Origin: Thermoanaerobaculia bacterium
Lineage (GTDB): Bacteria; Acidobacteriota; Thermoanaerobaculia; Gp7-AA8
Direction of reading: 5' to 3'
Length of the DNA stretch: 64,000 nucleotides
Assembly (NCBI GenBank): GCA_036389275.1
Contig: DASVQE010000009.1
Span: 30,568 to 94,567 of the forward strand
In this document: piece by piece, positions 44,844 through 64,000 of the stretch
Numbering within the stretch: the first letter of the stretch is position 1
How the letters are laid out: every line of letters begins with the position of its first letter
Translations under genes and position numbers: made by a program
The notes under the pieces: model-generated
The model's database searches: none
What the model was told of the DNA's origin: nothing
Seen by the model: the letters and a program-made list of their open reading frames with translations, nothing else

Positions 44844-44857
<14 letters not shown>
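43862..44857 (+). CDS. aminoglycoside-phosphotransferase-fold kinase, AmgK-like anomeric MurNAc/GlcNAc kinase
   Basis: LAGDASVRAYYR, HRDYHGQNL, IDYQD and YDMASLLRD. Confidence 0.78.
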
Positions 44858-45872
<1,015 letters not shown>

Positions 45873-45879
45873 TGCGAAA

Positions 45880-45907
45880 GATGAACGCGGAACGATGAAC
45901 GATGAAC
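45880..45907 (+). repeat. heptamer tandem repeat (GATGAAC x4, one degenerate) lacking an inverted partner
   Basis: GATGAAC GCGGAAC GATGAAC GATGAAC directly after icd. Confidence 0.75.
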
Positions 45908-45945
45908 AACAGCCTGGTGCAAAGTCGCGACACGTTTCGCACGTT

Positions 45946-46075: not shown

Positions 46076-47614
46076 ATGCCCTCTTCCAGCAGGAAGGACT
46101 CTACTCCGGAAAGGACCGCGAGAGCTGCACGCGCTGCGCAGCGTTTCGCCGCGCTCACCGAGGCGTACGTAGAGCGCTTCGACCGGGCTGAAGTAAACAC
46201 GAGGTTGAAGCTGTTCATCGTCAGCCGAGGCGTTACGGTGAGCGATCTCGCCCGGGAGGCTGGCATCAGCCGCAACCACGTTCGCCTTGTCGCCAGTGCC
46301 GAGCGCGAGCCGTCGCGGCGCAAAATGGCGACGATCGTGTCCGCCGCACGCCGGCTCACGTTCGAGCCGGTCAGGACTGAGAATTTATTTGAGTTAACGG
46401 CCGAGGAGAGTGGTACTTGGTTCCTCGCGAAAGATCGAAATAAGGCGATACGCGCGGCTGCAGCGAGTGCGGCACAACTCAAACTGGCGCGCGAACGCCT
46501 CATCGCCGTTGCGCACCATCGGCCGGTGTCGGAATGGCCGACGCGGCTCATGAGGCATCCGCAGGGCGTGAACGTTGCGCTTATCCGCTCGCTCCTAACG
46601 CTCGCTTACCGTACGCTCGACGCTGAGCCCCGCCTAGGCGATGAAATCGCCGACGTGGCGGCTAGTCTCGTCGCGGCCTTACCGGATACGGTCACCGCCG
46701 AAGTTAAAGTGATGATACGAGCCGTAGCGCTGCTGTACCGCGCCTACGCCTCACGGTCCCTCGGCCGGTATGACGAGGCAGCGGCTTTGCTCGACGCCGC
46801 CGAACGCGAAGCCGAACGAACGCCCTACTGCGCTAACGAACTCGCTCGCGTTTGGTATGAATGCGCGGCGCTTTGCGTCCTGAGAGGCGACGTACGTAAC
46901 GCCGAGCGGCACGCGAATCGCGCCATCACGCTTTTCACGGTGCTCGGCGACGTTCACCGGGTCGGCCGAACGCAAAATCTGATGGGAAGCGTCAGGTATG
47001 TCTCCGGTGATGTTGCGGCCGCTAGGGACCTTTGGTTAGCAGCGTACGACCGAATGCGAACAGCCGAGGACAAGAGTGCGCTCGCCGGGATCGCGCGAAA
47101 TCTCGGTGCCGCAGAGACACTCGTCGGAAACGTTGATGAGGCAAGAAACTGGCTCGATGAGTCCGAACGAATGTTTGTAGCACTTCGTCTCCCGACAGAA
47201 CTGACGCGCGTTCGGTGGGCAAAGGCGAAGCTGCAACTGGTCCTCGATCGTGGCGAAGGGGTGTCTCTCCTTAAATCGGTTCGCGCGGAATTCGTACGAC
47301 GAAACATGCCGACAGACGCCGGTTTCGTGGGCCTCGACATCGTTGAAGCTCTTCTCGACGATGAAAGCCGTAGCGAAGACCTTATTGCGCTCGCGCGCGC
47401 GACGGTCGGGGCATTCGAAAAAGCAGGGGCGACGCCGCGAATGCTCGAAGCGCTCAGCTACCTTCGTCAAGCAGTCCAGCGTCAACGCGCGACGAGTGAG
47501 CTTGTCGGAGAAGTCCGTGACTACCTTGCCGAAGCGTTGCGCGGGACGAACCTTCCGTTCGCCCCGCGCGACAGTGTCACGGCTTCGGAATCGACAACAT
47601 GCTCGACAGAATGA
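46076..47614 (+). CDS. XRE-type HTH plus TPR transcriptional regulator (RRNPP-like architecture)
   Basis: TRLKLFIVSRGVTVSDLAREAGISRNHVRLVASAEREPS HTH, then about 8 TPR-like helical repeats. Confidence 0.82.
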   Translation: MPSSSRKDSTPERTARAARAAQRFAALTEAYVERFDRAEVNTRLKLFIVSRGVTVSDLAREAGISRNHVRLVASAEREPSRRKMATIVSAARRLTFEPVRTENLFELTAEESGTWFLAKDRNKAIRAAAASAAQLKLARERLIAVAHHRPVSEWPTRLMRHPQGVNVALIRSLLTLAYRTLDAEPRLGDEIADVAASLVAALPDTVTAEVKVMIRAVALLYRAYASRSLGRYDEAAALLDAAEREAERTPYCANELARVWYECAALCVLRGDVRNAERHANRAITLFTVLGDVHRVGRTQNLMGSVRYVSGDVAAARDLWLAAYDRMRTAEDKSALAGIARNLGAAETLVGNVDEARNWLDESERMFVALRLPTELTRVRWAKAKLQLVLDRGEGVSLLKSVRAEFVRRNMPTDAGFVGLDIVEALLDDESRSEDLIALARATVGAFEKAGATPRMLEALSYLRQAVQRQRATSELVGEVRDYLAEALRGTNLPFAPRDSVTASESTTCSTE

Positions 47615-47651
47615 CTATGATCGGGATCAAAACGACAGGATCGAACGGCAC
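47577..47651 (-). CDS. 24-aa hydrophobic peptide MPFDPVVLIPIIVILSSMLSIPKP (candidate signalling peptide or type I toxin)
   Basis: RBS GGGAGGAGG (47666-47658) 6 nt before GTG 47651; TGA at 47579-47577; overlaps the 3' end of the HTH-TPR gene convergently. Below the ORF-track size cut-off. Confidence 0.55.
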   Translation of the reverse strand: MPFDPVVLIPIIVILSSMLSIPKP

Positions 47652-47811
47652 AGACGTCCTCCTCCCGCGCCGCCGCAGCAGCGCGATGTTTGAGATGTGT
47701 GGAGGGCGCCCTCTCCAAGAGGAGGAGTGTCAGATCGCGCGCTGGCGATATCACGGCTTTCGGGATTTCGGCGCGGGGTTCGGTATACTTCGCAAACCTC
47801 TTCACACGCCG

Positions 47812-48321
47812 ATGACGGACCCTTCTTACGCGCCGCGGCCCGACGACTCGGACCCGTTCGTGGCTGCGTACCGACAGCAGTTCGAGTTCTTACGTCTGCT
47901 TGCGACGCAGCGGTTCGGCATTCCGGTCGCTGACGCGGAGGCGATCGTTCAAGAGGTATTCGTCACGTACCTTCGGCGTCAACCGCATGTCAATGACGAA
48001 CGGCAGTGGCTCATCGCAGGAGTCTGTAACGCGTCGCGCGCGTACTGGCGATCCGTTGCCAAGCATGACGCATTACGCGATGGGCGCAGCCCGGCGCCAC
48101 CCCATTCCGAACGCATCGGGTCGCAACTCGATGCGCGTACGCTGCTGCGGCGCCTACCGCGCAAGTGTCGCGAAGTGTTGCGGCTGAAGTTCTACGACGA
48201 TTTGAGCGCCGCCGAAATCGCTGATCGCTTCCACACTTCGACCGGATACGCGAAGCTCATGATCCATCGCTGTCTCGCGGCAGCGCGTGACCTTCTTCGC
48301 GGTAGAGAGGGCGCATCTTGA
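47812..48321 (+). CDS. ECF sigma-70 factor
   Basis: DAEAIVQEVF, WLIAGVCNASR and LPRKCREVLRL...LSAAEIADRF; TATACT at 47784-47789 upstream. Confidence 0.88.
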   Translation: MTDPSYAPRPDDSDPFVAAYRQQFEFLRLLATQRFGIPVADAEAIVQEVFVTYLRRQPHVNDERQWLIAGVCNASRAYWRSVAKHDALRDGRSPAPPHSERIGSQLDARTLLRRLPRKCREVLRLKFYDDLSAAEIADRFHTSTGYAKLMIHRCLAAARDLLRGREGAS

Positions 48322-49673
48322 AAGGTTCGCACTACACCCGCGATGACTTTCTTGCATACCTCGATGGGAACGAAGACGTGGCTGATCCGGCCGCCATCGA
48401 TGCTCACCTTGAACATTGCGCCACTTGCGCTTCGGTCTTAGCTCAGGTGCGCGAAGACTACAAAATACTAAGCGATCCTGCGCTGTGGGAGCAGGCATTG
48501 GACACCGTCGGTGCAGCGAGGTCAGCGCGTGACGATTTGGCGCGTGAGGAGCATCTCAAGTTTGCGCTTGACGACCATCGCCGCCGAGCGGCTGAGGTAG
48601 CTCAGGCGGAACTCACCTTCGCTGAGCTGTCGAGCAGGTCGCCCGATGTTTGGCTGGAACACCTCTTTGCGCTGCCGGCGGAGCGTACCGACAGCTTGGT
48701 AATGCGTGTGGTTCAAGAGGCGCGCGCGATCGAGGAACAAGCGCCGCTTGAGGCGCTCCGACTGCTCGACGCGGCGCAAGCAATCGTGCTCGTCATCGAC
48801 GACGAACAGATTACTGCGGCGACCATCGGAGCCATCTGGAAGGAGCGGGCGAACACGCTGACGGCCCTCGGCGACTACGCGGCAGCGCTTACTGCATTAG
48901 TCGAAGCTGAGCGCGAGTACGCGCGCTCCATCGTAGCCCCGTACGATTTAGCTCTGGTCGATTGGGCACGAGCAAACGTGTACTTTCAGATGGGCGAATA
49001 TTCGCGAGTGCTACCGTTGACGCGGGAAGCTAAACGAACGCTGCGTAGGTTCGGCGACACGCTGCGCGCCACGCACGTCCAGGTACTCGAAGCGTGTACG
49101 GTTCATGAACAAGGTAATATCGAGCGTGCCGAGGAAATGTATCTTGCTCTTCTAATAAAACTTCAGAACTTCGGAGACGAGATTACATCTGCGCGAGTGC
49201 TTGCGAATCTCGCGTGCTGCAGGCTCCAACGAAATGATTTGATGGCGACCGAGGCATACGCCGCACGTGCGACTGCGATTTACGCTAAGCACGGCCTTGA
49301 CACGGAGATTACGCGCACTCGATGGGCGCTCGCTAAGGCGCTGCTTGCGCGAGGCGACAGAGACGCAGGCGTAGCCGCGCTTGGCCGCATAGCCGCGGAA
49401 TTCGAGAGCCTAGGGATGAGTACTGACGCAGCAGCCGTCCGCCTCGATATCGTGGAAGAGCTGATAAACGGCGAAGAGTACGCTCGTGCCGCCGAACTTG
49501 CGACGCAGGTCGCTACGACGTTCGCACTGGCAACAGAAAAGCTCAATCTTTCGAAGGCGTTGGACGCGCTACGACGAGCGACCGTCGAGCACCGCCCGAC
49601 GCGGGACCTGATTCGCGAAGCCCGGCACATCCTAATGCATCCGCACCTCCACTCCCTCCCGCCATCAGCGTAG
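48318..49673 (+). CDS. zf-HC2 anti-sigma-like protein with soluble TPR domain
   Basis: FLAYLDG...IDAHLEHCATC, then TPRs; TTGA overlap with the sigma gene; no TM segment. Confidence 0.82.
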   Translation: MKGSHYTRDDFLAYLDGNEDVADPAAIDAHLEHCATCASVLAQVREDYKILSDPALWEQALDTVGAARSARDDLAREEHLKFALDDHRRRAAEVAQAELTFAELSSRSPDVWLEHLFALPAERTDSLVMRVVQEARAIEEQAPLEALRLLDAAQAIVLVIDDEQITAATIGAIWKERANTLTALGDYAAALTALVEAEREYARSIVAPYDLALVDWARANVYFQMGEYSRVLPLTREAKRTLRRFGDTLRATHVQVLEACTVHEQGNIERAEEMYLALLIKLQNFGDEITSARVLANLACCRLQRNDLMATEAYAARATAIYAKHGLDTEITRTRWALAKALLARGDRDAGVAALGRIAAEFESLGMSTDAAAVRLDIVEELINGEEYARAAELATQVATTFALATEKLNLSKALDALRRATVEHRPTRDLIREARHILMHPHLHSLPPSA

Positions 49674-49793: not shown

Positions 49794-49956
49794 TCACACT
49801 ACTTTATGGCGGTGGTGTGTGGCACGTCTGCTCTCTCCTTGAACCGATACCGACACTGACGATCCGATGACACCCTTTGGACACCTCAACATTTCTGCCT
49901 TCACCACCACCACCGCCACCATCGGGAAGACCATTCCAGACCTGCAGGAGCTAATG

Positions 49957-52900
49957 ATGATGCGCCTTTCTCAAATCGCCGCTGGACAGAGTCTCTATCG
50001 GTCAACGAACGTCCGCCGCGGCCAGTCGGAGGTGGAACCCAACCACCGTCTCCTAGCTCTGCGCGAGCGCGTGCGTCACGCGTCAAGGCGCTTCCGACCG
50101 CTCCTCAAACTGCGTAGTTCCCGCGCAATCGTGATCGCGCTAGTTGCAGTGCTCAGCGCGTCGATGTCAGCAGCGGGCGCGACCACAGCGTTTCAACGTG
50201 TTGTGACGCTAACCGGCAGTTCTTCCTCGCACGATGTATTCAAGCGTCCCACAGGTGCCGCCGTTTCGCTCTCCGACGGCACGGTATACATCGCGGATCG
50301 TCAACACCATCGCGTGCAAGCGGTCTCGCCTGACGGTCTGACGCGGCCGGTCGCGCCGAGCACGAGCTTCGTAGACCCGACCGCTGTCGCCGTGTCGCGT
50401 GACTTTCTGTACATCACGGACGGCAACGCCATCCGTCGTATATCGCTCGCCGCGGGCGAGGCCGCTTCCACCGTGGCCGGTTCAGAAATGCCGGACGGTC
50501 GCGACGGCGTGGGACCCGCGGCCGGCTTCAAGCAGCCGATGGGCCTCGCATTCAATCAGCGTGGCGAGATCGTCGTAGCGGATACGGGCAATCACAAAAT
50601 CAGATTGGTGACACCCACCGGCGTCGTGAGCACTATCGCCGGAGATGGTCGCCCAGGCTTCACTAACGGGTCCACCGCCATTGCGCAGTTCAAGGGCGTC
50701 GAGGGCGTGGCAGTGGCGCCAGACGGCACGATTTACGTCGCAGATACCGGCAACCACACCATTCGTGGCATCAGGAATGGCGCCGTGTTCACCGTCGCCG
50801 GTACGGGCCAACCCGGCCTACTTGACGGCGAGGCGAACCTCGCGTCCTTTAAGGAACCTTCGAGCGTCGCGATTGATGACTTCGGCACACTTTATGTCGC
50901 CGATAGAGGTAATCACGCGATCCGACGTATCAGCGATGGAGTCGTCAGTACGGTTGCTGGTACGGGCATTCCCGGCTTGGTCAACGCTACTGATGTCGCT
51001 CACGCGCAATTCGCGTTCCCCAGCGGTGTTGCAGCCGCGGGCGCGTTGTATGTAGCCGACAGTGGGAATGACGCATTGCGCGTGCTCTACCCGTCACTGG
51101 CGTTGAGCAGCGTAGAACCGCGCCGAGGAGATCCTGCTGGCGGTGAGATCCTGCACCTCTATGGTATGGGCTTCGTGCCCGGTGCGACGGCAGTTACCGT
51201 CGGCGGCGTTGGCGTCGCGGCAACATACGTTTCGTCGACGGAGCTTGTCGTGACGGCTCCGCCGCACGCGATCGGATTCGTCGACGTTGTCGTGACGACG
51301 CCGGCCGGATCGCGGACGCTTGTAAACGCGTTTGAATACGTCCCGCCGTTCGTCGCGATCGTCATCAGCCCGTCGAATCCGCGACTCGATCCACACGCAA
51401 CCGTGCAGTTGTCGGCGAGTGGAGTCACAGCCGGCGGCACCGCTACGGACATTACGCCACGGGTTGCTTGGAACAGCGACGCACCGGCCGTTGTCACCGT
51501 GGATGCCAGCGGCCTTGCCGAGGCAAAGGCGCCCGGCACCGCCACGATCACTGCGTCACTCAATGCACTCGCCGGCTCGACCACGGTCACGGTGCGGCAA
51601 CCGGAACCGGTACCGCCGGACCCGGTCACGACGGCGCCGCCGCTCGCGACCAGCGCGACAACCTCGTTCATCGGCTCGACCGAATTTCTCTACAGCGGCC
51701 CGGACGCCATTCAGCAAGCCGTCGCACCCGGAACGATCAAGCCGCTGCGCTCCGCCGTCATTCGCGGTCGCGTTTTCACGCGAGACGGACAGCCGCTGCG
51801 CGCAGTACAGGTCACCATCAGCAAGCGCCCCGAGTACGGATCGACCGCAACGCGCGATGACGGCCGGTTCGACATCGCTGTCAATGGCGGCTCACCGCTC
51901 GTCGTGCGTTACGAGAAGAACGGCTACATCGGCGCCGAGCGCACGGTGCTCGTGCCGTCGCAGGACTTCGCGTTCGCCACGGATGTCGTGCTGTCCGCCC
52001 TCGACGCGACCGTCACCACCGTTGCGGCGTCCGCGTCAGCCGCCCAGGTCGCGCGTGGATCGCTCATAACCGATGCATCCGGCTCGCGGCAGGCCACGCT
52101 CGTGTTCTCGTCGGCGACAGCTACGACGTTGCGGCTTAGCGACGGCACGACTGCGAACGTACCGGAGCTGCACGTTCGCGCGACGGAGTTCTCCGTCGGT
52201 GCTGACGGGCCGAAGGCAATGCCGGCCGCGCTACCGCCGCAGAGCGGTTACACCTACTGCGTCGAACTGAGCGCCGATGAAGCAATCGCGGCGAATGCGA
52301 AAAGCGTGCAGTTCTCCAAGCCGGTCTCGTTCTACGTCGAGAACTTCCTCGGATTTCCGGTTGGTCAACACGTGCCGGTCGGCTACTACGACCGCGACCG
52401 GAACGCATGGTTGGCGATGCCCGATGGGCGCGTCGTGCGGGTTGTGACGGTTGACGCTGGTGTTGCCCATCTTGATACCGATGGCAACGGCACCGCGGAT
52501 GATGCGGGCATCGCCACTGAAGAGTTGCAGCGGCTCGGCGCGCTCTACGCGCCCGGCGCGACGCTCTGGCGCGTCACGACGACACACTTCTCGTCAATCG
52601 ATCTCAATTGGGCTTGCTCATTACCACCTGACGCGACACTTCCAAAGGGTCAACCGACTTATTACGCGCCGCGTGATAACGCCTGCACGACCGGCGGCTC
52701 GATCATCGAGTGTGAGAATCAGACGCTCGGCGAAGATGTCGGGATCACCGGCACGTCATTCGCGCTTCACTATCGCAGCGACCGCACCGAAGGTCGGGTC
52801 GCTTCGCGCACGATCGACATCCCGGTGACGGGCGACACGGTCCCGGCGAGCCTGAAACGTGCGGAGCTCGAAATCTCGATTGCCGGAACACTGACGCGGC

Positions 52901-55900
52901 AGTCATTCACAAGCTCACCGAAGCAGACCTATCACTTCGTTTGGAACGGCCGTGATGCGTACGGCCGCGTGGTACAGGGCGGCGCACCGATCACAATTCG
53001 CACCATCTACTACTACGACGGTTTTTATCAGGTTCCGACGCAGGCTACATTCAGCTTCGGGCAGACCAGCGGCATCGCCGGAACCAGCTCGAGCCGCATT
53101 GAAGTCACGACGACCGCGCAGTGGCAAGGCCACTTGGGCGCGTGGCATGCGACGGGCGACCGTATCGGCGGCTGGACGATCACGCCGCATCACTTCTATG
53201 ACGTGACGACGAAGACACTCTATCGCGGCGACGGGTCGCGCAAATCGGCCATGCCGCAGCGGTTCGGCGCGCCGCAGGGCACGTTCACGCCGATCATGGG
53301 CAAACCGGGTGTGCGCGACGCGAAATGGACCGGAAACGGCGGACCGGCGAAAGACGCGACCTTCTCCTACATCACATCCATGAAGGTAGGCCCGGACGGC
53401 ACGCTGTACATCGGTAGCGCCGAATACATTCACAAGATCACGCCGGACGGGACGCTCGTCAGGATCGCAGGGAACGGGGCAGGTGGAGTGCCGACGACTA
53501 CCGAACGCGCCGCCACGGGTCCAGCGCTGCAGACGCGCTTCTATTTCCCTGACAGCATTGCAGTCGCACCGGACGGGACGCTCTTCGTCGCCGAGCCGTT
53601 CCTGAATCAAATCCGCGTGATCACGCCTGACGGCACCGCGTCGCGCTATGCCGGGACGGGCGTCTCGGGCCGTGGCGGCGATGGAGTACCGGCCGCACAA
53701 ACGCCGCTCGCATTGCCGTCGAGCGTCGCGCTGGCGCCGGACGGTTCGCTGTACGTTGCCGAGCCGGAAGCGAACCGCATCCGGCGCATCACACCGGACC
53801 GCCTTGTCTACACCGTCGCGGGCTCAGGGCTGCGCACGTATTCGGGCGACGGAGGCCCGGCGCTCAACGCAGGTCTGGTGTCTCCGCGGGCGCTGACGCT
53901 TGCCTCCGATGGGACGGTCTATTTCTTCGACGCTCTCAGCAGCACGGGATGCCGCATTCGCCGCGTTACGACAGACGGGATGATTTCCACGGTTGCAGGC
54001 GGCGTCCCATGCAGATCATCCACCGGCGACGGTGGCGCGGCTGCCGACGCTCTGGTCAGCATCAATAACATCGAATTCGGCGGGCTGGCGGTAGGACCAG
54101 ACGACTCGATCATTTTCGTCGAGCAGCGCCCGACGAGTCGCGTCCGCCGCATCGATCCGTCCGGCACGATTGACACGGTACTCGGCTCCGGGACGCTCGG
54201 CAGCATCACGCCGGGCGCGTTGGCGACGGGCACGGATATCGGCCCGTCGTATGCGCTGGCGGTCGCGCCGAACGGCACGATGTACTTCGCCGACGATGAA
54301 GACACGCCGACGAACAGCGTGCTTTACAAAGTCGAACCACCGCTGCCACCGTTCACCGGCACAAGCAGTGAAATTCGTATTGCGGATGGTGATCTCGTTT
54401 ACGTCTTCACGGAAGGCGGGAGGCACTTGCGCACGTTAGCGCGCGATACCAACGCCACCCTCTACAGCTTTGGCTACGACGGCGACGGCGTCATGACCTC
54501 CATCACAGACTTCGACGGTAATGTGACTCGCATCGAACGCAGCGGCGGCGACGCGACAGCGATCGTCGCGCCGGGCGGGCAGCGGACCGAGATTGCCGGT
54601 GCCCCGTACGCTACGACCATTACGACAGCACCCGGTCAGACGACAACTTTTACTTACGCCGATGGCCTGATGCAAACCCTGACGGATTCGCGACGCAATA
54701 CAACGAAGTTTGAGTGGGACGAACTCGGCCTCTTGCGTCGCGACAGCGATCCGGAAGGCGGAGCCAAGACGCTCACCCGTCGCCCTACTGCGGACGGTCA
54801 CGAGGTCGCGATTGCGACCGCTGGCGGTCGGACGACGCATTACACAGCGGACGTGCTAAAGACCTCCGATCATCTGATCACCGTGGTTAGTCCCGCCGGA
54901 CTGATCGCCACGACTCTCGAAGGGAAGAACGGCGTGACGACCTCAGTACGGCCGGATGGTGCAACGAGGAGCGTCAGACTTGCGCCTGACCCCGTGTCGG
55001 GCATGCTTGCTCCATTCGAAGCCGAGTCCGCCATGATCTTTCCGAGTGGCCGCACATTTGTGATGTCGTCGACCAGTAAAGCCACGATGCTTAATCCGTC
55101 TACGCCCGCGACGCGAACCGAGACGTTCACGGTCGCGGGCAAAACATTCACCCGCTTGTTCGATATCGCGAAGCTGACGGAGCAGTGGATCACACCGACT
55201 GGTCGGACGATGGCGGGGACAGTAGACGCAGCCGGTCGTCGGCGCTCGACCTCGATCCCCTCGCTCGCGACCGTCTCGTTCACATACAACTCAAACGGAA
55301 CGCTCGCTAGCGTCGCGCAGGGTTCGAGAAGTCAAAGCTTTGCATACAACGCGCGCATCGAACTGACGTCGATGACAGACGCGCTGCACCGCACAACCAG
55401 TTTTGAGTACGACAACGCCGGCCGGGTCACGAAAGAAATTCTCTCCGACCTCCGTGAGATAACGTTCTCGTACGACCCTGCAGGCAACCTGCTGTCTGTA
55501 ACGCCGCCGGGCCGGCCGTTATACGGATTTGCCTACAACAAAGTGAATCTGCCGACACTCTACGCACCGCCACGTGTACTCAACGGCGGAGCGACGGTGT
55601 ACCACTACAACGCAGACCGCGAACTAACGTCGATCGAGCGACCCGACCGCTCGACGATTGAACTCGGTTATGACGGCGGTGGGCGCCTAACGTCTCTGAC
55701 GTGGCCTTCTGGCGCGCTTACATATGACTATTTGTCGTCGGGTGCGCTCCACGTCATAAGTGGTGCCGAGGCTTCCCTAACATACGACTACGACGGTTCA
55801 CTGCTGACTGGAGTCGCGTGGACAGGTGCTCTGAGTGGCTCAATTAGATGGGCATATACACCCGAGTTGCTCATCGCGTCGGAGACAGTAGGCGGCGATT

Positions 55901-57447
55901 CGGTAGACTTCGGCTACGACGACGACGGCCTGCTGGTCAGCGCCGGCGCCTTACATGTGTCGCGAAACGCAGCCGGACTGCCCGACGCAAGCTCACTCGG
56001 CGTCGCGCAAGACGTCCTCACGTTGAACGAATACGGCGAGGCGTCTAGCTACAGCGCCAGCGCGAGCGGCGCCGAACTGCTCGCCTTCGACTACACACGG
56101 GACGACGCTGGTCGCGTGATCGGCATTGTCGAGCGTACGCCGGCCGGCGAGACGACCACAGGCTACTCGTATGACAGCGAAGGACGCCTGACTGACGCAG
56201 TTCACGCTGATGCTAGCGTGCACTACGACTACGACGATAACGGCAACCGCGTTGCGCGCCACGTCTTCACCACGTCCGGTGCGACAACTGAGACGATGGC
56301 GTACGACGCTCAGGACCGGCTTCTTAATTACGAAGGAACACAGTACACGTATACAGCCAACGGCGAACTACTGAGTAAGACCGACGCTGTGGGCACAACT
56401 CGCTACGAATATGATGCTCTCGGCAACCTGAGGCGCGTCTCGCTCCCTGACGGCGCCTCCATCGAATACATTATTGACGCGCAAAACCGGCGCGTAGGCA
56501 AGAAGCTCAACGGTACTCTTACCGCGACCTGGCTTTACGCGGACCAGTTCCGCATCGTAGCCGAACTGGACCCAACGGGCGCCGTCGTCAGCCGTTTCGT
56601 GTATGGCTCTCATTCGACCGTACCCGATTACATGATACGGAGCGGCGTAGCGTACCGCATCTATACAGACCATGTAGGGAGCCCTCGCGTAGTTGTCGAT
56701 ACTACGACCGGCATGGTCGCGCAATTAATGGCCTACGACGAGTTCGGGAACGTAGTTCAAGATACAAATCCGGGGCTGCAGCCGTTCGGGTTCGCAGGCG
56801 GCCTTTATGACGCTTCGACCGCCCTCGTACGCTTCGGTGCGCGCGACTACGATCCGCATACCGGCCGATGGACATCTACGGACCCGGCTGGGTTCGCGGC
56901 TGGGTCGGCGAATCTGTACGGCTACGCATCCAACGATCCCGTGAACCAAATTGACCCCTCAGGTTTGGTCACGCTACCGGTTGTCGGATGGGTAGATACA
57001 GGCGAAACGTCAGGCGAGGCCGCCCTCGAAGCATACGCTGACACTCTGACCGACCCAGATGCCGCGTGGTATTCGAAAGCGGGTGCGGCGGTCGGCGGAA
57101 CGTTTGCCGCGTTATGGACTCGCAAGACGAGCGATGCCACGGCGACGACGCTCGTGTGCGCGTACAGTACGGCTGGAGTCGCGGCACGCCGACCCTACTG
57201 GCGTTATACTGGACCGAGATCCAAGCCAGAGGGTCCGTGGCTAACCCGCGGCTGGCGACCGCCGTACGGGAACAATTTCACGCGCGCGAAGGACGCCCTG
57301 CAGTTGCCCGAAACGCCAACAGGCGTGGTTCAGGTGACGCCGGGGCCGCTCGAACCGGTAGCGGGGCCGCGAGTGATTAAGGGAAATCCGCAGTGGGGCA
57401 CCGGTGGTGGCGTGGAATACTACCGCGGGTTCCGCTTTCCGAACTAG
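49957..57447 (+). CDS. bacterial teneurin-like RHS/YD-repeat protein with C-terminal toxin domain
   Basis: RBS AGGAG before MMM (49954-49962), N-terminal TM/signal, NHL propeller, IPT/TIG, Big_2, teneurin TTR-like domain (IRGRVFTRDGQPL..V...PEYGST.TRDDGRFDIAVNGG), FN-plug (YHFVWNGRDAYG; IGGWTITPHHFYD), second NHL, YD repeats, and RHS core NLYGYASNDPVNQIDPSGL. Confidence 0.92.
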   Translation: MMRLSQIAAGQSLYRSTNVRRGQSEVEPNHRLLALRERVRHASRRFRPLLKLRSSRAIVIALVAVLSASMSAAGATTAFQRVVTLTGSSSSHDVFKRPTGAAVSLSDGTVYIADRQHHRVQAVSPDGLTRPVAPSTSFVDPTAVAVSRDFLYITDGNAIRRISLAAGEAASTVAGSEMPDGRDGVGPAAGFKQPMGLAFNQRGEIVVADTGNHKIRLVTPTGVVSTIAGDGRPGFTNGSTAIAQFKGVEGVAVAPDGTIYVADTGNHTIRGIRNGAVFTVAGTGQPGLLDGEANLASFKEPSSVAIDDFGTLYVADRGNHAIRRISDGVVSTVAGTGIPGLVNATDVAHAQFAFPSGVAAAGALYVADSGNDALRVLYPSLALSSVEPRRGDPAGGEILHLYGMGFVPGATAVTVGGVGVAATYVSSTELVVTAPPHAIGFVDVVVTTPAGSRTLVNAFEYVPPFVAIVISPSNPRLDPHATVQLSASGVTAGGTATDITPRVAWNSDAPAVVTVDASGLAEAKAPGTATITASLNALAGSTTVTVRQPEPVPPDPVTTAPPLATSATTSFIGSTEFLYSGPDAIQQAVAPGTIKPLRSAVIRGRVFTRDGQPLRAVQVTISKRPEYGSTATRDDGRFDIAVNGGSPLVVRYEKNGYIGAERTVLVPSQDFAFATDVVLSALDATVTTVAASASAAQVARGSLITDASGSRQATLVFSSATATTLRLSDGTTANVPELHVRATEFSVGADGPKAMPAALPPQSGYTYCVELSADEAIAANAKSVQFSKPVSFYVENFLGFPVGQHVPVGYYDRDRNAWLAMPDGRVVRVVTVDAGVAHLDTDGNGTADDAGIATEELQRLGALYAPGATLWRVTTTHFSSIDLNWACSLPPDATLPKGQPTYYAPRDNACTTGGSIIECENQTLGEDVGITGTSFALHYRSDRTEGRVASRTIDIPVTGDTVPASLKRAELEISIAGTLTRQSFTSSPKQTYHFVWNGRDAYGRVVQGGAPITIRTIYYYDGFYQVPTQATFSFGQTSGIAGTSSSRIEVTTTAQWQGHLGAWHATGDRIGGWTITPHHFYDVTTKTLYRGDGSRKSAMPQRFGAPQGTFTPIMGKPGVRDAKWTGNGGPAKDATFSYITSMKVGPDGTLYIGSAEYIHKITPDGTLVRIAGNGAGGVPTTTERAATGPALQTRFYFPDSIAVAPDGTLFVAEPFLNQIRVITPDGTASRYAGTGVSGRGGDGVPAAQTPLALPSSVALAPDGSLYVAEPEANRIRRITPDRLVYTVAGSGLRTYSGDGGPALNAGLVSPRALTLASDGTVYFFDALSSTGCRIRRVTTDGMISTVAGGVPCRSSTGDGGAAADALVSINNIEFGGLAVGPDDSIIFVEQRPTSRVRRIDPSGTIDTVLGSGTLGSITPGALATGTDIGPSYALAVAPNGTMYFADDEDTPTNSVLYKVEPPLPPFTGTSSEIRIADGDLVYVFTEGGRHLRTLARDTNATLYSFGYDGDGVMTSITDFDGNVTRIERSGGDATAIVAPGGQRTEIAGAPYATTITTAPGQTTTFTYADGLMQTLTDSRRNTTKFEWDELGLLRRDSDPEGGAKTLTRRPTADGHEVAIATAGGRTTHYTADVLKTSDHLITVVSPAGLIATTLEGKNGVTTSVRPDGATRSVRLAPDPVSGMLAPFEAESAMIFPSGRTFVMSSTSKATMLNPSTPATRTETFTVAGKTFTRLFDIAKLTEQWITPTGRTMAGTVDAAGRRRSTSIPSLATVSFTYNSNGTLASVAQGSRSQSFAYNARIELTSMTDALHRTTSFEYDNAGRVTKEILSDLREITFSYDPAGNLLSVTPPGRPLYGFAYNKVNLPTLYAPPRVLNGGATVYHYNADRELTSIERPDRSTIELGYDGGGRLTSLTWPSGALTYDYLSSGALHVISGAEASLTYDYDGSLLTGVAWTGALSGSIRWAYTPELLIASETVGGDSVDFGYDDDGLLVSAGALHVSRNAAGLPDASSLGVAQDVLTLNEYGEASSYSASASGAELLAFDYTRDDAGRVIGIVERTPAGETTTGYSYDSEGRLTDAVHADASVHYDYDDNGNRVARHVFTTSGATTETMAYDAQDRLLNYEGTQYTYTANGELLSKTDAVGTTRYEYDALGNLRRVSLPDGASIEYIIDAQNRRVGKKLNGTLTATWLYADQFRIVAELDPTGAVVSRFVYGSHSTVPDYMIRSGVAYRIYTDHVGSPRVVVDTTTGMVAQLMAYDEFGNVVQDTNPGLQPFGFAGGLYDASTALVRFGARDYDPHTGRWTSTDPAGFAAGSANLYGYASNDPVNQIDPSGLVTLPVVGWVDTGETSGEAALEAYADTLTDPDAAWYSKAGAAVGGTFAALWTRKTSDATATTLVCAYSTAGVAARRPYWRYTGPRSKPEGPWLTRGWRPPYGNNFTRAKDALQLPETPTGVVQVTPGPLEPVAGPRVIKGNPQWGTGGGVEYYRGFRFPN

Positions 57448-57477: not shown

Positions 57478-57933
57478 ATGCCTGAAGTCGTCATTGTCAT
57501 CCTCGCTGCGACCGCCACCCTTATAATCGTCGCGGCGATGGTTCCACGACTCATTAGGCGTTCCAGCCGACCGCTGCAAGTCGGCGACCGCATCAGAATA
57601 TCTGGCGGCTATGACTCTCCGCCGCTGTGGCTTGGTGGCCGCGAGTATGTCGACGGGTCGGTCGTACAGTTTCGTACGACCGACCCCGCCGCTAAAAGCG
57701 TTTCAGCGGTGGTAAAGCTGGATTCGCCAATCACCACACGTGGGTTTGCGTCTGACGTTGTGATGATGCACCTGCGGTTCGTGAATGCTCGATGGGGCCA
57801 GCACGAGACCGTTCACCTTGAACTCGTCTCCTCACCTCCCGCCGCCGGTCAGGAGTTCAATGGGGAGACCGGCTACGACGCTCGGGATGGCTGGATTGAG
57901 TCGCATGCTGGCTATCGCGTCATAGCTCGTTGA
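57478..57933 (+). CDS. candidate immunity protein (N-terminal TM anchor plus SH3-like beta domain)
   Basis: Starts 30 nt after the RHS stop; MPEVVIVILAATATLIIVAAM TM; LQVGDRIRISGGY. Confidence 0.65.
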   Translation: MPEVVIVILAATATLIIVAAMVPRLIRRSSRPLQVGDRIRISGGYDSPPLWLGGREYVDGSVVQFRTTDPAAKSVSAVVKLDSPITTRGFASDVVMMHLRFVNARWGQHETVHLELVSSPPAAGQEFNGETGYDARDGWIESHAGYRVIAR

Positions 57934-58452: not shown

Positions 58453-58869
58453 TCAACGCACCTCGATCACGATCGCTTCTGCGAGCTGCATGTCGGCGAG
58501 AAACGGCGGCTCCACCGTGATGTTGAACGTCCCAGCGATGTCGAAGTCGAGGGCGAGCGTCAGTTCACCGAGCGCGAGGGGCCGAGTGAATGTCACGCCT
58601 CCGTCGTTTGCGTCGGCGCGGTCGCGAAGGCGGAAGGTGACGGTGCCGCTATCGCTCCGCGGCTCGCCGTCGAAGTCGACGAGCTGCAGGCGTATAGAGA
58701 CGGCGGCCAGGCCGGTCGCGCCGATGTTTGCCGCCGGCGGCGGCGAGAACACCAGAACGGGATCACGCTTGAGGCGCTCTTCACTGACAAGAGCGCCGCT
58801 GTCGTCCGTCACCCTTCGGTGCAGGTATACACCGGTCGCCTCGACATGCTTCAGGATTGTTTCAGTCAT
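58453..58869 (-). CDS. phage tail-associated hypothetical protein (beta-rich)
   Basis: RBS GAGG; directly follows the tail-tip/fibre gene. Confidence 0.65.
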   Translation of the reverse strand: MTETILKHVEATGVYLHRRVTDDSGALVSEERLKRDPVLVFSPPPAANIGATGLAAVSIRLQLVDFDGEPRSDSGTVTFRLRDRADANDGGVTFTRPLALGELTLALDFDIAGTFNITVEPPFLADMQLAEAIVIEVR

Positions 58870-58878
58870 GGTTACGCC

Positions 58879-61800
58879 TCACGTGAGTTTGTATGCGGTC
58901 GCCACGTAAGCGGTATCGGTCGTCGTGCCGACGGTAATCGTCAGCGACGAATTGAAAACGAGACCGTGTTCGTCAAGGTACGGCATGAGGTAATTTACGG
59001 TGCCCGATGCGGACATACCAACTGAACCCACAATGGCGGTGTTCAGGTACGTTTGAAGCGCACCGGAGATGACGAACCCTTGTGCGTTGAATAGCGTGGT
59101 GCCATCGATTGTGAGCGTCAGCGTAACGGTACCGGTAGTCGAGCGTCCCAGCGACAAGAACCGGAGCTGGCCGCGGCCGGTAACGCTGACAACAGTCGTC
59201 GTAGCGTTCGTGACTAGTGCGGTGTTGAGTAGTGGTCCTTTGGGCGTTCCGGTAACTTGAGCGAATCCGTTCTGAACGCCGACAGCCGGACCGCTCGGCG
59301 CGACAGCGGTAACTGCGTTCAATCCTCCTCCGAATGTGGAAAGGGCGCTACGAACATAGGCAGTCGTCGCGAGGGACGTGCTGTTGTCGGCAGTCGCCGG
59401 AGTGGGCGCGGTCGGTGTGCCTGTTAGTGCGGGCGAGTTCTTCGGTGCCGCGTCAGTGATGCCGTAACCGGCGAGCGTCGTCGGCTTTGTGGTGATCGAT
59501 GCCCAGGGCACGGTCCCGACATCGAGCGACCCGCTGTCATTGAAGTGCCAAATCCATGCTACGCCTTCGCGCGCGACGCCGGAGCCGGACGCCGCACCCC
59601 AAAGGAGCGAGCGGTCGAGCGTCGCGCAGTTGAAGCCGGCATAGGAGCCGCTCGCGGCGGCGGCAATGCCGAGCGTCGAATTGGTTGTCGGCGCGGCTGA
59701 AAATTGGCCGATCGGCGTCAGCAGCCGCCATCGTTGCGACGTTGAGTCGTAGCCGAGTGTAACAAGCGCGTTTGGAGGAATATCGACGTTGCGGTTCTGC
59801 GGAAGCGACAGACGGTTCTCAGCCGCGGCAGACGCGTGCTCGTGCACGAGCGTCATCGTGACGGACGTCGTATTCGCGAGCGTGGCCATGACGCCGCCGC
59901 CTTGGCTGATGACGCCGCCGATTGTGAATGGCGAGGTCGGCCCCGTGATGCGCGCCATGCCCGGCCCGGCGGGCAGCCCGACCGCGAGGGAAGCACCGTT
60001 GGGTAGTGCGAGCGCCGACAAGGTCTGCGCGACGTACGGCGACTGGCCGCCCGCGGCGGCGAAGATTGAGGCGAGGTGCGATCGTGCGCCGACGCTTTCA
60101 GTACCGGCCGCGTTCACGACGGTGATCAGCACGTCGCTGACCTTCGATCCGGCCGTGTTCCATTCGGTCGAGACGCTAGTCATGATCGGCGCGACGCTGA
60201 GCGGCGTTGCCGATGTCGGCTGAGCAGATACGGGAATGGTGGTGAAGAGCTTTCGTCCGCCGCTGCGCATGTCATAGACGCGGTACTCGCGAACCTGCGC
60301 GAACGTGCCCAGGTACTCCGCGAAGTGAAATTCTGTAAACGTCTGTATGCCGCCGGGAAAGTTGATGCGCCAATAGCGATGTGCACCGGCGTTTGTCCAT
60401 GTAGCTTGGTTCCCGGTGACGCCACTAGCCGCCGCAAATGGATCTCGCGCCGCTCCGAGCGTGACGAGTGTCCAGGTAATAGCGTCGTCCGAATACTCCA
60501 CCGACGGCGACTGCGTGAGTGCACCTGTGTTGTAGTAAGTCAGCTCGCGGAACGCTTTTGCTTGACCAGCGCCCGCGTCATAGCGGAGCCATGCGGCGCC
60601 GCTCGGTGTTGTAGCGCAAGTGCTCGTGAGCACTCCGTCGTTGACTGCTGCTCCCGAATACGAGGTGAGACCGCTATGCGTCCAGAACGTGGCGCCGTAT
60701 CTCGTTATCGAACGGACCTGCGGCGCAGACCAGAAGCGCGAGTCCGTATCGCCACCGACATCCACGACATCCGGCACGCTGCCCGTGACGCCTTGGACAG
60801 CGACGGAAACCGTAGTGCCGGTGCTGACCTGTTGCGTAACGCGGTGCTTGACTTTGAGGGTCAAAGCATACGAGCCAGTCTCGAAAAGCGCCGGCGTCAG
60901 TGCCGGTGATGAAGAGGTGTCGAACCAATGCCGTTGCGGCCCGCCATTGATCGATACCCACACTTCTACCGTCTGAAGGAATGGGAAATTTGGCGGCGGC
61001 GTGAACGTCAGCGTGCCTTTCGGCAACCAATCGCCACCCGCTGTGAGGTACTGCTCTTCGGTCCAGCCGATGGACGCCGCAGCGATGTCCGGCGGGGCTG
61101 CACTCGGATCGGGCAGCGTCGACTGAATCTTCGGTGTGTCGCTGAGGACGAACTCAGCAAACTTCGCGTCGTTGTGCTCGAACAGCTCGACGTCGTACGT
61201 GTTGTCCGTGTTCTTCGTTCGGCGCAGCAGTCGCATGGGAATCGTAAGTCCGCGCGACTCGATGACGCGCGTCACGATGTCGCCGAGTTGCCGGTCCGAG
61301 GCGATCGCGAGCCATTTTTCCCGAGCCTTTGCGTCGTACTGCCGCGAATTGAGCAAGTAAGTCAGGAGGGACTGGACCTGCGCCGGATCGTGGAGGTGCG
61401 GCAGCCGGTATTCCTCTTCGATCGGGTCTTCTGTGCCCGCATTCACAGCCGATGTCGCAAGCGAGATCGGCTTCTGTTGCCAGTTGTTCGCGACATCGGT
61501 GTACCAGACGGTGACTTTATTCGGCCGGTCGAACACGTCGGTGCGATCAAGGTCGAGAATCGATGAGGACGCGACGTGCCGATCGTCGAAGGTGGCCACA
61601 CTCGCAGCCGGTCGGTCGGCGACGACTCTGTACTTCGTCGCATCCCAAAACCAATAGGCACGTGCCATGATCCGGAACGTCTGGATCACGTCGTCCGGAC
61701 TCGTCGTGTCGAGCAGTAGGAGATGCGACTCGGCCTTGCGCCCGGCCGCCGCGTCCGCGTTACGCGCGGCGGTGAACGATGACGCATCTATGCGCGTCGC

Positions 61801-62418
61801 CGAGAGTCCCTTCCCTTCACTCCACCGCGCGAAGTCGTACCACTGATTCCAAACGCTTGTGGAGTACACGAAGGTGCCGCTGTCCGGCAGCAGGCATTTG
61901 CGCGTGCGCATATGCCAGACGAGATCGGGAAGCGTCGCGTTCCAAAACGTCGAGAACTGCGAGAGCTTTACGATGACGTAGCACGTGCCGGCGAACGCCT
62001 CGTTCCAGCTCGGCAGGACTGCGGCGAGGTTCGGGTCGACCTGACCGGACGCCGTACCGGGATACCACCAGTATTGCCATGACAGCGCTCCGGTCGGCGC
62101 GAGCGGCCGTCCGTCCGCCAGCTTGACCGCGATCAGGCCGTCGCACTCTCCGGCGCATAGCTCGATGACGCACCACAGCTCGTCAACGGAAGAACGGTAG
62201 TGAACAAACTGAAGTTTCCCGGCGAGCCGCTGCTCCCCATACGCAATTGCGCGCGGGCCATCGTCGACGCCGGGCAGCATCAGCTCGCGCTCTTCCTGCC
62301 GCTTGGCGGTGTTTCGGGTGACGTGCGGATGCGGCACGTCGCCTTGCGTTCCGACGTTCGGAGCACGATAGAACTCGGGCGGCGGCGAGGGGTGCTCTAC
62401 AGCGCGGTGGCGCGCCAC
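58879..62418 (-). CDS. phage tail tip/host-specificity protein (gpJ/megatron-like) fused to a fibre region
   Basis: AIAYGEQRLAG, YPGTASGQVD, AGTCYVIV, VATFDDRHV, NKVTVWY; discoidin-like YSDDAITWT; fibre motifs WASITTKPTTLAGYGITDA and SPALTGTPTAPT...ATTAYV. Confidence 0.85.
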   Translation of the reverse strand: MARHRAVEHPSPPPEFYRAPNVGTQGDVPHPHVTRNTAKRQEERELMLPGVDDGPRAIAYGEQRLAGKLQFVHYRSSVDELWCVIELCAGECDGLIAVKLADGRPLAPTGALSWQYWWYPGTASGQVDPNLAAVLPSWNEAFAGTCYVIVKLSQFSTFWNATLPDLVWHMRTRKCLLPDSGTFVYSTSVWNQWYDFARWSEGKGLSATRIDASSFTAARNADAAAGRKAESHLLLLDTTSPDDVIQTFRIMARAYWFWDATKYRVVADRPAASVATFDDRHVASSSILDLDRTDVFDRPNKVTVWYTDVANNWQQKPISLATSAVNAGTEDPIEEEYRLPHLHDPAQVQSLLTYLLNSRQYDAKAREKWLAIASDRQLGDIVTRVIESRGLTIPMRLLRRTKNTDNTYDVELFEHNDAKFAEFVLSDTPKIQSTLPDPSAAPPDIAAASIGWTEEQYLTAGGDWLPKGTLTFTPPPNFPFLQTVEVWVSINGGPQRHWFDTSSSPALTPALFETGSYALTLKVKHRVTQQVSTGTTVSVAVQGVTGSVPDVVDVGGDTDSRFWSAPQVRSITRYGATFWTHSGLTSYSGAAVNDGVLTSTCATTPSGAAWLRYDAGAGQAKAFRELTYYNTGALTQSPSVEYSDDAITWTLVTLGAARDPFAAASGVTGNQATWTNAGAHRYWRINFPGGIQTFTEFHFAEYLGTFAQVREYRVYDMRSGGRKLFTTIPVSAQPTSATPLSVAPIMTSVSTEWNTAGSKVSDVLITVVNAAGTESVGARSHLASIFAAAGGQSPYVAQTLSALALPNGASLAVGLPAGPGMARITGPTSPFTIGGVISQGGGVMATLANTTSVTMTLVHEHASAAAENRLSLPQNRNVDIPPNALVTLGYDSTSQRWRLLTPIGQFSAAPTTNSTLGIAAAASGSYAGFNCATLDRSLLWGAASGSGVAREGVAWIWHFNDSGSLDVGTVPWASITTKPTTLAGYGITDAAPKNSPALTGTPTAPTPATADNSTSLATTAYVRSALSTFGGGLNAVTAVAPSGPAVGVQNGFAQVTGTPKGPLLNTALVTNATTTVVSVTGRGQLRFLSLGRSTTGTVTLTLTIDGTTLFNAQGFVISGALQTYLNTAIVGSVGMSASGTVNYLMPYLDEHGLVFNSSLTITVGTTTDTAYVATAYKLT

Positions 62419-62987
62419 TAGGCCACCACCTTCTGGGTAAATTCACTCTCAATGATCCAAACGTCCGCCTCTCGGTGACGGCCGCGAAATCGAACAGCTC
62501 CGTAATTGCACTCGAACTTGCGCCGCGCGTTGGGCGCATCGAGGGTAATCACGACGCCTACCGACGGCTTCGTGAGGCTTGTGTACTGAACCTGATCCTC
62601 ACCTTCGCCGCCGGTGCCTACGAGCAGCGTTGGCTGTGAGGCTATCGTCACGTTGTTGTGTTTGATGACTGGCGCGATGACGTTTTTCGCGGGCAGCGTG
62701 TAAACAGTCGATACGCCATCCGCAGTGGCGACATAGACGCCGCGCAGCTTGTGGAGAAAAAAGTCGTAGATGTGGAAAGCCGAGGCGGCGAACGACCACC
62801 AATGATCCTCGATGAGGTCGTACTGCTGACGCGTGAGGGTGTTCCACGTCGCCTTCGCGAAGAATTGCTTTACCGGGTCATAGGTGTTGATCTGCAGAAA
62901 GCCGTTCTTCGCGGTGTCGCGCTCTTGATAGTGTTCGTACTCCGGCAGCCACTCGTTTGGATAGATGTCGGGGAAAAGGTTTGCCAT
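62418..62987 (-). CDS. distal tail protein, DUF2460-like
   Basis: ATADGVSTVYTLP and PSVGVVITLD patterns; size and position in the tail module. Confidence 0.6.
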   Translation of the reverse strand: MANLFPDIYPNEWLPEYEHYQERDTAKNGFLQINTYDPVKQFFAKATWNTLTRQQYDLIEDHWWSFAASAFHIYDFFLHKLRGVYVATADGVSTVYTLPAKNVIAPVIKHNNVTIASQPTLLVGTGGEGEDQVQYTSLTKPSVGVVITLDAPNARRKFECNYGAVRFRGRHREADVWIIESEFTQKVVA

Positions 62988-63053
62988 TGAAGGTGCGAAG
63001 GTTCGGTTTCGCCGGACGCGCGAGAGGTGATGCGCCGGAGGTGGCGCGGCGTC

Positions 63054-63998: not shown

Positions 63999-64000
63999 CT

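Follow-up and report, generated by a model that had tools for sequence, protein, structure and literature searches.

How complete is the teneurin fold of a 2526-residue protein encoded in a Thermoanaerobaculia genome, how would such a protein leave the cell, and what does its proximity to phage genes mean? These questions are raised by a 64,000-nucleotide stretch of DNA, hereafter the window, which corresponds to positions 30,568 to 94,567 of contig DASVQE010000009.1 (GenBank assembly GCA_036389275.1). The window carries a single 7581-nt plus-strand open reading frame (ORF; 49867..57447), which gives 2526 aa from its first ATG and whose translation likely starts at ATG 49957/49960 (AGGAG at 49946-49950) or at GTG 50071. 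Judged by its sequence, this ORF encodes a bacterial member of the teneurin-like proteins (TLPs), which are polymorphic toxins of the RHS/YD class; the host genome is that of a Thermoanaerobaculia bacterium (Acidobacteriota). Bacterial TLPs are the presumed ancestors of animal teneurins. The overall explanation advanced here, which we regard as very probable, is that of a secreted and shell-packaged TLP toxin which, together with its immunity gene and a sigma/anti-sigma pair, forms a cassette on a decayed prophage or composite island. A sequence-only reading of this DNA had already proposed a full teneurin superfold preceded by additional N-terminal modules. This proposal is correct and is borne out by Pfam and PDB-sequence matches, yet it is already published knowledge, and the protein belongs to a described family. 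The new points are the uncharacterised toxin tip and the location on a 24-kb island with leftover phage tail genes.

The assignment to the TLP family is carried by comparisons with proteins of known structure and with curated domain models. By using phmmer against PDB sequences, the entries 9PT5/9IFO, annotated as 'Teneurin-like protein', were retrieved with E=0 and 1191 bits over residues 495-2371, and the teneurins-2, -3 and -4 with E values from 1e-80 to 1e-85 (1e-64 to 1e-85 with Ten-m included). Both entries represent the TLP of Bacillus inaquosorum (BiTLP), described by Raoelijaona and others in a study that builds on the earlier treatment of bacterial TLPs by Jackson et al. 2018 and 2019 (Raoelijaona et al., Nat Commun 2026; PMC13018210). 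In Pfam, NHL repeats were matched in the N-terminal third with 133 bits, TTR_TEN1-4 at residues 628-709 with 80.5 bits (cut-off 27), and FN-plug_TEN1-4 at residues 985-1051 with 26.1 bits, slightly below the cut-off of 27.8. This sub-threshold score is of no concern, since BiTLP, a solved bacterial protein, itself reaches just 31.6 bits on the same model. TEN_NHL (137.5 bits) and TEN_YD-shell (115.6 bits) were both above their cut-offs, RHS repeats were also matched, and NCBIfam placed Rhs_assc_core at residues 2290-2367. The FN-plug, the NHL propeller and the YD-shell occur in the order typical of the TLP family. Matches to TTR and FN-plug, whose absence had been named beforehand as the mark of a generic RHS protein, are present, and all teneurin motifs quoted in the sequence-only reading lie in frame 1 of the ORF at the positions it had assigned to them.

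Along the plus strand, the protein begins with an additional six-bladed NHL beta-propeller (residues ~115-410; 50209..51096; Pfam NHL), which is considered a separate domain because six-bladed NHL designs among the PDB sequences ('Pizza6') match residues 126-404. It is followed by an IPT/TIG domain (residues 413-490; 51103..51336; PF01833, 46.9 bits) and by a Big_2 domain (residues 497-576; 51355..51594; PF02368, 35.3 bits), the latter aligning with the Big_2 repeats of 9PT5. Next come the teneurin TTR-like domain (residues 628-709; 51748..51993; PF25020) and the TIP (teneurin insertion protein) domain (residues ~710-935; 51994..52671), the region of which is covered by an unbroken 553-bit alignment with BiTLP residues 275-920. 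In 96% of TLPs a TTR domain and then the TIP insertion precede the FN-plug, and TIP, as defined in the same study, is a bacterial-specific domain that does not occur in animal teneurins (PMC13018210). The FN-plug region (residues ~936-1128; 52672..53250; PF24329) contains C940 and a cleavage site between G944 and S945 (nt 52696-52701). The teneurin-type NHL propeller (residues ~1129-1492; 53251..54342) aligns with BiTLP residues 920-1258, and the YD-shell (residues ~1493-2367; 54343..56967; TEN_YD-shell, RHS_repeat and Rhs_assc_core) ends in the RHS core with DPSGL at residues 2363-2367 (nt 56953-56967), exactly where the cleavage site had been claimed.

The residues of the self-cleavage sites are central to the proposed function. 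BiTLP cleaves itself between G723 and S724 in the FN-plug, and again after L2144 through an RHS aspartyl protease formed by R2103, D2116 and D2140; in TLPs this core site consists of a conserved Arg and two DPxG aspartates spaced 24 residues apart (PMC13018210). A multiple alignment of 12 sequences places C940, G944 and S945 of the window TLP on BiTLP C719, G723 and S724, and R2326, D2339 (DPAG), D2363 (DPSG, followed by L) and L2367 on R2103, D2116, D2140 and L2144. G944, S945, R2326 and D2363 are invariant in all 12 sequences, and at position 2339 ten of them carry D and two carry E. All residues of both self-cleavage sites are therefore conserved at the sequence level in the window TLP, and cleavage itself would be expected by homology. 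By homology with the solved BiTLP structure, the TTR-TIP-FN-plug-NHL-YD-shell superfold would form a closed shell, sealed by the FN-plug and holding the C-terminal domain (CTD) of 159 aa. Two self-cleavages, one between G944 and S945 and the other after L2367, the latter made by the putative R2326/D2339/D2363 protease site, would release this domain inside the shell. The earlier claim of a C-terminal toxin enclosed behind a conserved cleavage site is in this way supported for the window TLP. In front of the shell, the NHL propeller, the IPT/TIG and the Big_2 domains would act as adhesin domains that bind surfaces or targets. This NHL, TIG and Big_2 layout is common to a clade of ~15 relatives from metagenome-assembled genomes (MAGs) of Thermoanaerobaculia and Acidobacteriota, and amounts to one conserved form of the 'diverse adhesion modules', not an isolated case. 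The search with the N-terminal 620 residues of the TLP was swamped by generic NHL-repeat proteins, with only P0065 and P0006 being informative.

How the protein leaves the cytoplasm depends on the reading of its N-terminus. The hydrophobic stretch AIVIALVAVLSASMSAAGA, at residues 87-105 (50125..50181, plus strand), is the sole segment of the TLP with a 19-residue Kyte-Doolittle mean above 1.6, and it had been read beforehand either as a teneurin-like type II anchor or as part of a long signal peptide. Its strongly hydrophobic core spans only ~10 residues and is followed by a c-region of small residues ending in A-G-A, with signal peptidase I (SPI) predicted to cut after A105 (AGA/TT). These h- and c-regions align with the signal peptides of relatives: 10 of the 11 that were read start with a short classical signal peptide of 20-30 aa, as in MRHLSICIVVVFLVLAPWGLAA cut before TF, and the remaining one (P0278) is truncated at the N-terminus. 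The closest paralogue, (M)RQSSVSRLVRSFFTVCALALPLQA cut before SDTFARVATL, aligns with RSSRAIVIALVAVLSASMSAAGA followed by TTAFQRVVTL of the window TLP, onto residues 85-110. Because of the ~10-residue core, the A-G-A c-region, the lack of a lipobox Cys and the lack of an in-register Tat motif, a cleaved Sec/SPI signal peptide is favoured over an anchor as the better reading of this sequence. A lipoprotein signal was rejected on account of the absence of Cys after the h-region, and Tat export because SRRFRPL misfits S/T-R-R-x-F-L-K and places RR 12 residues ahead of the hydrophobic core. The window TLP would thus be exported via the Sec pathway by an N-terminal signal peptide, and of the two earlier options the long signal peptide is the better one. 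Starting at the internal GTG 50071, the protein would even carry a canonical 37-aa signal peptide (MRHASRRFRPLLKLRSSR plus the h-region), although this start has no Shine-Dalgarno sequence.

The rival explanation, a type II signal-anchor protein starting from ATG 49957/49960 with a 55-aa basic cytoplasmic tail, an uncleaved helix and the topology of animal teneurins, is considered unlikely. The AGGAG lies 6-9 nt upstream of ATG 49957/49960, which makes a 55-aa basic N-terminal extension possible, and the 39 codons at 49954-50070 show a coding-like G+C content by codon position (0.69/0.46/0.69) that resembles the rest of the gene. The 19 residues of the hydrophobic stretch are also just long enough to span a membrane, and the arginine-rich segment ahead of them agrees with the positive-inside rule. 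However, the short, cleavable-looking signal peptides of the relatives, including that of the paralogue with 64-84% identity, stand at the aligned position, the core and the small residues at -3/-1 are those of a typical cleavable signal, and the extension has neither a homologue nor any similarity to the teneurin intracellular domain. The proposal of a teneurin-like anchor is therefore not supported, in view of the relatives' signal peptides, the short core and the A-G-A c-region.

With the Sec signal peptide as the preferred reading of the N-terminus, the opposite end of the protein holds the cargo. The CTD (residues 2368-2526) was used in an exhaustive HMMER search, which retrieved 168 relatives, mostly located at the extreme C-terminus of TLP/RHS proteins of 1300-2900 aa, and otherwise fragments. 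The matches fall into two sets, covering either residues 7-70 or residues 69-159 of the domain. The helical part carries the motif ...GExxGxxALxxYADxLTDP...GGxFxALWTPCTSD... and is followed elsewhere by unrelated C-termini, including a Hint domain, and the C-terminal part is found behind other linkers in other proteins. From this split of the matches and the differing partners, it is concluded that the tip consists of two independent modules. The first is a helical module of three helices (57001..57186, plus strand), which elsewhere precedes different toxin domains in TLP/RHS proteins, and the second is a domain of ~85 aa from an uncharacterised family (57187..57444, plus strand), with the conserved motifs WRY, TRG, PYG, AKDALQLP, PVxGPR and GxGGGxEY in the alignment. 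AlphaFold2 modelled the whole tip with a pLDDT of 89, as three helices followed by a small alpha/beta domain, and the trimmed 90 aa with a pLDDT of 91.7 and a pTM of 0.80, in the order beta-beta-alpha-beta-beta-beta. The three-helix module, being shared with other toxins, probably serves packaging or entry, and the ~85-aa domain would be the toxin proper.

The search for a known relative of this toxin domain was negative at each level. Pfam returned no family for residues 2368-2526, and no match at E<=1 for 23 members of the tip family. A profile search of PDB sequences was empty. Foldseek gave only meaningless helical matches with the 159-aa model, and with the trimmed 90-aa model nothing in PDB below E=9 and nothing in BFVD. 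It could be argued that the domain is a minimal ADP-ribosyltransferase (ART) or an NAD+ glycohydrolase of the TNT/Tne type. WRY would then be the aromatic-R strand, TRG the T/S-R strand and GGGxEY the late motif of the supposed signature, a resemblance to ART/TNT signatures that is unsupported by the searches. ART toxin tips are indeed documented in TLPs, as in that of M. fibrata (PMC13018210). However, neither ART nor TNT was among the Pfam families, the profile search retrieved neither, no ART or NADase structure was found by Foldseek with a model of such high pLDDT, and ~85 aa is roughly half the size of known TNT/ART domains, all of which renders this assignment improbable.

Side observations concern the cysteines of the tip. 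The Cys of 'LWTPCTSD' is kept in 16 of the 22 other aligned tips and is replaced in the window TLP (LWTRKTSD; 57112-57162, residues 2416-2432), the only Cys of whose tip, C2431, lies 12 residues further on. Many TLPs of the clade end in a CxC motif (...CGCK, ...CGCGN, ...CGCS, ...CSCGK) irrespective of toxin type (P0065, P0271-P0274, P0278, P0282, P0184, P0185, P0192 and P0196); the window tip has no such end. Since in BiTLP a Cys of the C-terminal domain is disulfide-bonded to the FN-plug Cys, at the position of C940 in the window TLP, the CxC motif may by analogy serve as a tether to that FN-plug Cys.

In TLPs the ~15-kDa hypervariable toxin sits inside the shell and the immunity gene directly downstream (PMC13018210). 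Starting 30 nt past the TLP stop codon, a gene at 57478..57933 (plus strand) encodes a candidate immunity protein of 151 aa, which begins with a transmembrane helix; as RLIRRSSR directly follows this helix, the remaining domain is predicted to be cytoplasmic. A word-index search for homologues of this protein retrieved none, and homologues emerged only from the DNA downstream of the closest tips. The two closest tips, 65-68% identical to that of the window and from unrelated samples, are both directly followed by one: at L023:8237-8668 with 40% identity and an E value of 2e-37, and at L024:12017-12445 (142 aa), immediately after the TLP stop codon and uncalled as a gene in the public JGI record. 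Behind tips of 45-57% identity, from two genomes of the same genus, stands instead a member of a second, unrelated family of conserved small proteins, marked by KGWPGR...WLKTY...WMYDYGE (L019:9920-10342 and L017:5441-5836), which is absent from the genome of the window and is probably an alternative immunity family. Such co-variation of tip and small protein matches the expectation for cognate toxin-immunity pairs, and as its homologues trail the two closest tips, the 151-aa membrane protein is likely, from its sequence and placement, the cognate immunity protein, with protection being predicted. With an inner-membrane anchor and a domain predicted to face the cytoplasm, it would point to a cytoplasmic toxin target. 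The toxin domain and the co-occurring membrane-anchored immunity family form a new pair which is directly testable.

Upstream of the TLP gene, three plus-strand genes complete the cassette. The first gene of the island encodes a TPR-repeat protein of 512 aa (46076..47614; Pfam TPR_12), paralogous to the TPR part of the anti-sigma factor. It is followed by an ECF-like sigma factor of 240 aa (47599..48321; Pfam Sigma70_r4_2 and r4) and by a zf-HC2 anti-sigma factor with a TPR domain, of 451 aa (48318..49673; Pfam zf-HC2, TPR_1). Homologues of both adjoin TLP genes in three genomes of the same genus, so that, in addition to the window, 3 of the 10 same-genus loci fetched carry the pair: L014:2908-4807 in the same orientation, and L017:15738-19152 and L020:15263-17568 in divergent orientation. 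No sigma/anti-sigma homologues were found within the 3-kb flanks of 80 TLP loci from other taxa. As there are ~5 such pairs per genome, chance adjacency is near 1% per locus. A lineage-specific regulatory link between the sigma/anti-sigma pair and the TLP is likely, as judged from gene neighbourhood, and the island-encoded ECF-type pair probably controls the expression of the cassette. A consensus scan of the cassette for promoters and terminators returned nothing above the shuffled background.

The cassette resides on an insertion of 24.0 kb, which was delimited by aligning the contig (C9) with itself by blastn. It is bracketed by 626-bp direct repeats of 95.7% identity. The left repeat (45296..45921, plus strand; C9:75863-76488) comprises the last 574 bp of the isocitrate dehydrogenase (IDH) gene (44844-45872) and 52 bp downstream, and the right repeat, outside the window (window-equivalent 69962-70587; C9:100529-101154), holds a copy of the last 191 IDH codons. 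In related genomes the gene order from LigB via PPIase and APH to IDH is kept, with DUF309 and a NirD/L-like regulator directly after IDH, which corresponds to the empty site; in the genome of the window these two genes resume 24 kb later, after the second IDH 3' copy. The G+C content of the island is ~0.60-0.64, compared with 0.65-0.70 upstream. Between the repeats lie exactly the TPR/sigma/anti-sigma/TLP/immunity cassette and a phage tail module. The simplest reading is that of a decayed prophage or composite element at the IDH 3' end, which either carried the toxin cassette or received it later.

The tail module, siphovirus-type and headless, spans 58453-64000 of the window and continues to L003:1-12700. 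Its genes are on the minus strand: a last gene of 138 aa without a family match (58453..58869), directly downstream of the fibre gene; the central tail fibre or host-specificity (J-like) protein of 1179 aa (58879..62418; Pfam Phage-tail_3 and PHROG tail-fibre families); a gene of 189 aa without a family match (62418..62987); a tail protein of 180 aa (63054..63596; PHROG phrog_2048); and the 3' end of a tape measure gene (1446 aa; PHROG tape-measure families), which runs off the window (63642..64000). Past the tape measure, outside the window, lie a DUF1799 chaperone gene and a Phage_tube_2 tube gene (Pfam), and then the right repeat. Three minus-strand 'genes' beyond the tube gene (L003:12755-14508) were rejected as spurious, since they run antisense to the IDH fragment, to DUF309 and to the NirD/L-like regulator. 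Capsid, portal, terminase, lysis and integrase genes are all missing from the module, which falls short of an intact prophage; its gene content would suit a prophage remnant as well as a tailocin-like cluster of the F type.

The phage association claimed by the sequence-only reading holds for the window locus, where the cassette lies inside the same 24-kb insertion as the tail module, and fails as a general property of TLPs. It is very unlikely that the TLP is phage cargo, or that it is functionally coupled to the tail module, for example through tailocin-like delivery with both under the island sigma factor. Such coupling would agree with the confinement of cassette and tail genes to one repeat-bounded insertion, with the presence of tube, chaperone, tape measure and fibre genes in the absence of head genes, and with a family for which no delivery machinery is known (PMC13018210). 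However, homologues of the tail genes were found at none of the 92 other TLP loci, TLPs were absent from 50,697 GenBank phage genomes (tblastn) and from IMG/VR (scanned with two TLP motifs), and no phage genes lie beside the other TLP copy of this genome. The cassette and the tail genes are, furthermore, transcribed convergently, the predicted Sec signal peptide would be unexpected on tail cargo, and the cassette has already been seen in relatives at other sites without tail genes. Extremely doubtful is the notion of the island as one functional unit, in which the sigma/anti-sigma pair encoded there would activate the TLP as well as the headless tail, and a tailocin-like tail would deliver or release the toxin. 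The cassette and the headless siphovirus-type tail module share a strain-specific insertion at the IDH 3' end. A TLP cassette on a horizontally acquired insertion beside phage remnants would be one plausible route to the patchy distribution of the family.

Several points weigh against the overall explanation of a secreted, shell-packaged toxin on such an island. The start codon is ambiguous, and ATG 49957/49960 gives an unusually long, arginine-rich n-region of 55 aa; a protein of 250 kDa would have to cross the outer membrane, a difficulty shared by the whole TLP family; no fold or family could be recognised for the toxin domain; and the cleavage, export and toxicity of the window TLP are all deduced by homology. 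Integrase, head and terminase genes are missing from the island, and its 626-bp repeat shows no clean crossover point, as the comparison with three relatives gave 13 sites for the left copy against 7 for the right, so that the duplication may instead have arisen by rearrangement.

Measured against known systems, the window locus adds details and not a new principle: a toxin/immunity family, a recurrent sigma/anti-sigma neighbour, prevalence in Thermoanaerobaculia and an icd-flanked island. As a class, TLPs are polymorphic toxins with variable N-terminal adhesion modules and Sec signal peptides, of the SPI or SPII type (PMC13018210). The window TLP has its core domains in the same order as BiTLP (Big_2, TTR, TIP, FN-plug, NHL, YD-shell and RHS core, with a small polymorphic domain at the C-terminus), retains the residues of both self-cleavage sites together with the FN-plug Cys, is followed directly by a putative immunity gene and probably begins with a Sec-type signal peptide. 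In contrast, the overall identity is ~36%, an extra NHL propeller and an IPT/TIG domain take the place of the four Big_2 repeats of BiTLP, the toxin tip is unrelated, two-part and without a known fold match, and the window TLP has an ECF sigma/anti-sigma pair upstream and sits on a prophage-remnant island. Its host class, Thermoanaerobaculia, is also absent from the isolate-based survey of the BiTLP paper.

The distance to animal teneurins (Ten1-4, Ten-m; PDB 6FB3, 6CMX, 7BAM) is greater. The EGF-like repeats and Cys-rich region that precede TTR in animals, their intracellular domain and their ABD/Tox-GHH C-terminus are all missing from the window TLP; among its Pfam hits there is no EGF family, with NHL, TIG and Big_2 occupying that place, and no Tox-GHH in the CTD. 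Two features that animal teneurins lack are present in it, namely TIP and an unbroken RHS self-cleavage motif (PMC13018210), and the type II topology with a long intracellular domain finds no counterpart beyond, at most, a non-homologous basic extension of 55 aa. The sequence-only reading had further suggested that the locus bears on how the fold moved between lineages. With bit scores against PDB teneurins used as a proxy for distance, in place of a tree, BiTLP matches animal teneurins in one stretch with 447-481 bits, whereas the window TLP matches them in 3-4 stretches with 272-289 bits. As it is farther from teneurins than BiTLP, the window TLP has no bearing on transfer into animals and informs little on the movement of the fold. 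Bacillota TLPs are the ones placed next to the eukaryotic clade by the 2026 paper (PMC13018210).

With the Rhs effectors of type VI secretion systems (T6SS), such as RhsA of P. protegens (7Q97), 8H8A and Tse5 (8CP6), the window TLP has in common the YD-repeat shell, the RHS aspartyl protease, the encapsulated C-terminal toxin and the downstream immunity gene. It differs in having no PAAR, VgrG-binding or prePAAR N-terminus (Pfam, NCBIfam), a predicted Sec signal peptide and putative adhesin modules being found instead, and in its FN-plug, NHL, TTR and TIP additions. The idea of a generic RHS/YD protein whose teneurin-like motifs are a chance resemblance, to which the slightly low FN-plug score might have lent colour had BiTLP itself not scored so modestly, is ruled out by the phmmer search of PDB sequences, in which T6SS Rhs proteins match just the last ~220-310 residues (E 1e-20 to 1e-28). 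The insertion, for its part, resembles e14 (and phage 21) in icd of E. coli K-12, where an element at the IDH 3' end likewise has the intact gene on one side and a fragment encoding its C-terminus on the opposite side (PMC13626634). It differs in that the IDH of the window is a 342-aa NAD-type enzyme, the duplicated segment is long (626 bp), no integrase or excisionase is present and only the tail module survives, half of the island being toxin cassette.

The assignment of the host to Thermoanaerobaculia agrees with the proteins at least 90% identical to the adjacent IDH, which are named from Thermoanaerobaculia or Acidobacteriota MAGs. The isolate survey of 2026 recorded TLPs in 139 genomes of six phyla and in fewer than 3% of species, with Holophagae as the only Acidobacteriota (PMC13018210). 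In the present work, a protein search returned more than 1600 TLP relatives. A single-sequence scan of species genomes for close relatives found nothing, and an alignment-based profile scan, with one genome per GTDB species, succeeded in locating at least 590 TLP loci. These are distributed among Acidobacteriota, Chloroflexota, Actinomycetota, Nitrospirota, Verrucomicrobiota, Gemmatimonadota, Myxococcota and Pseudomonadota, as well as Binatia, Bacillota, Calditrichota, Fibrobacterota, Bacteroidota and others. The prevalence of TLPs in a genus of soil Acidobacteriota and in MAGs of many phyla is thus well beyond the figures of the isolate survey. Within this Thermoanaerobaculia genus, a strong TLP-type TTR match is present in 13 of the 35 genomes, often twice. 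The genome of the window is itself an example, as it has another TLP gene, the two parts of which lie on separate contigs (C34:23719-26272 and C48:2-1549; also L006:10001-17311). Situated without phage or sigma neighbours, this second TLP is 64-84% identical to the first, bears a DUF4329 toxin tip and is followed by two small ORFs.

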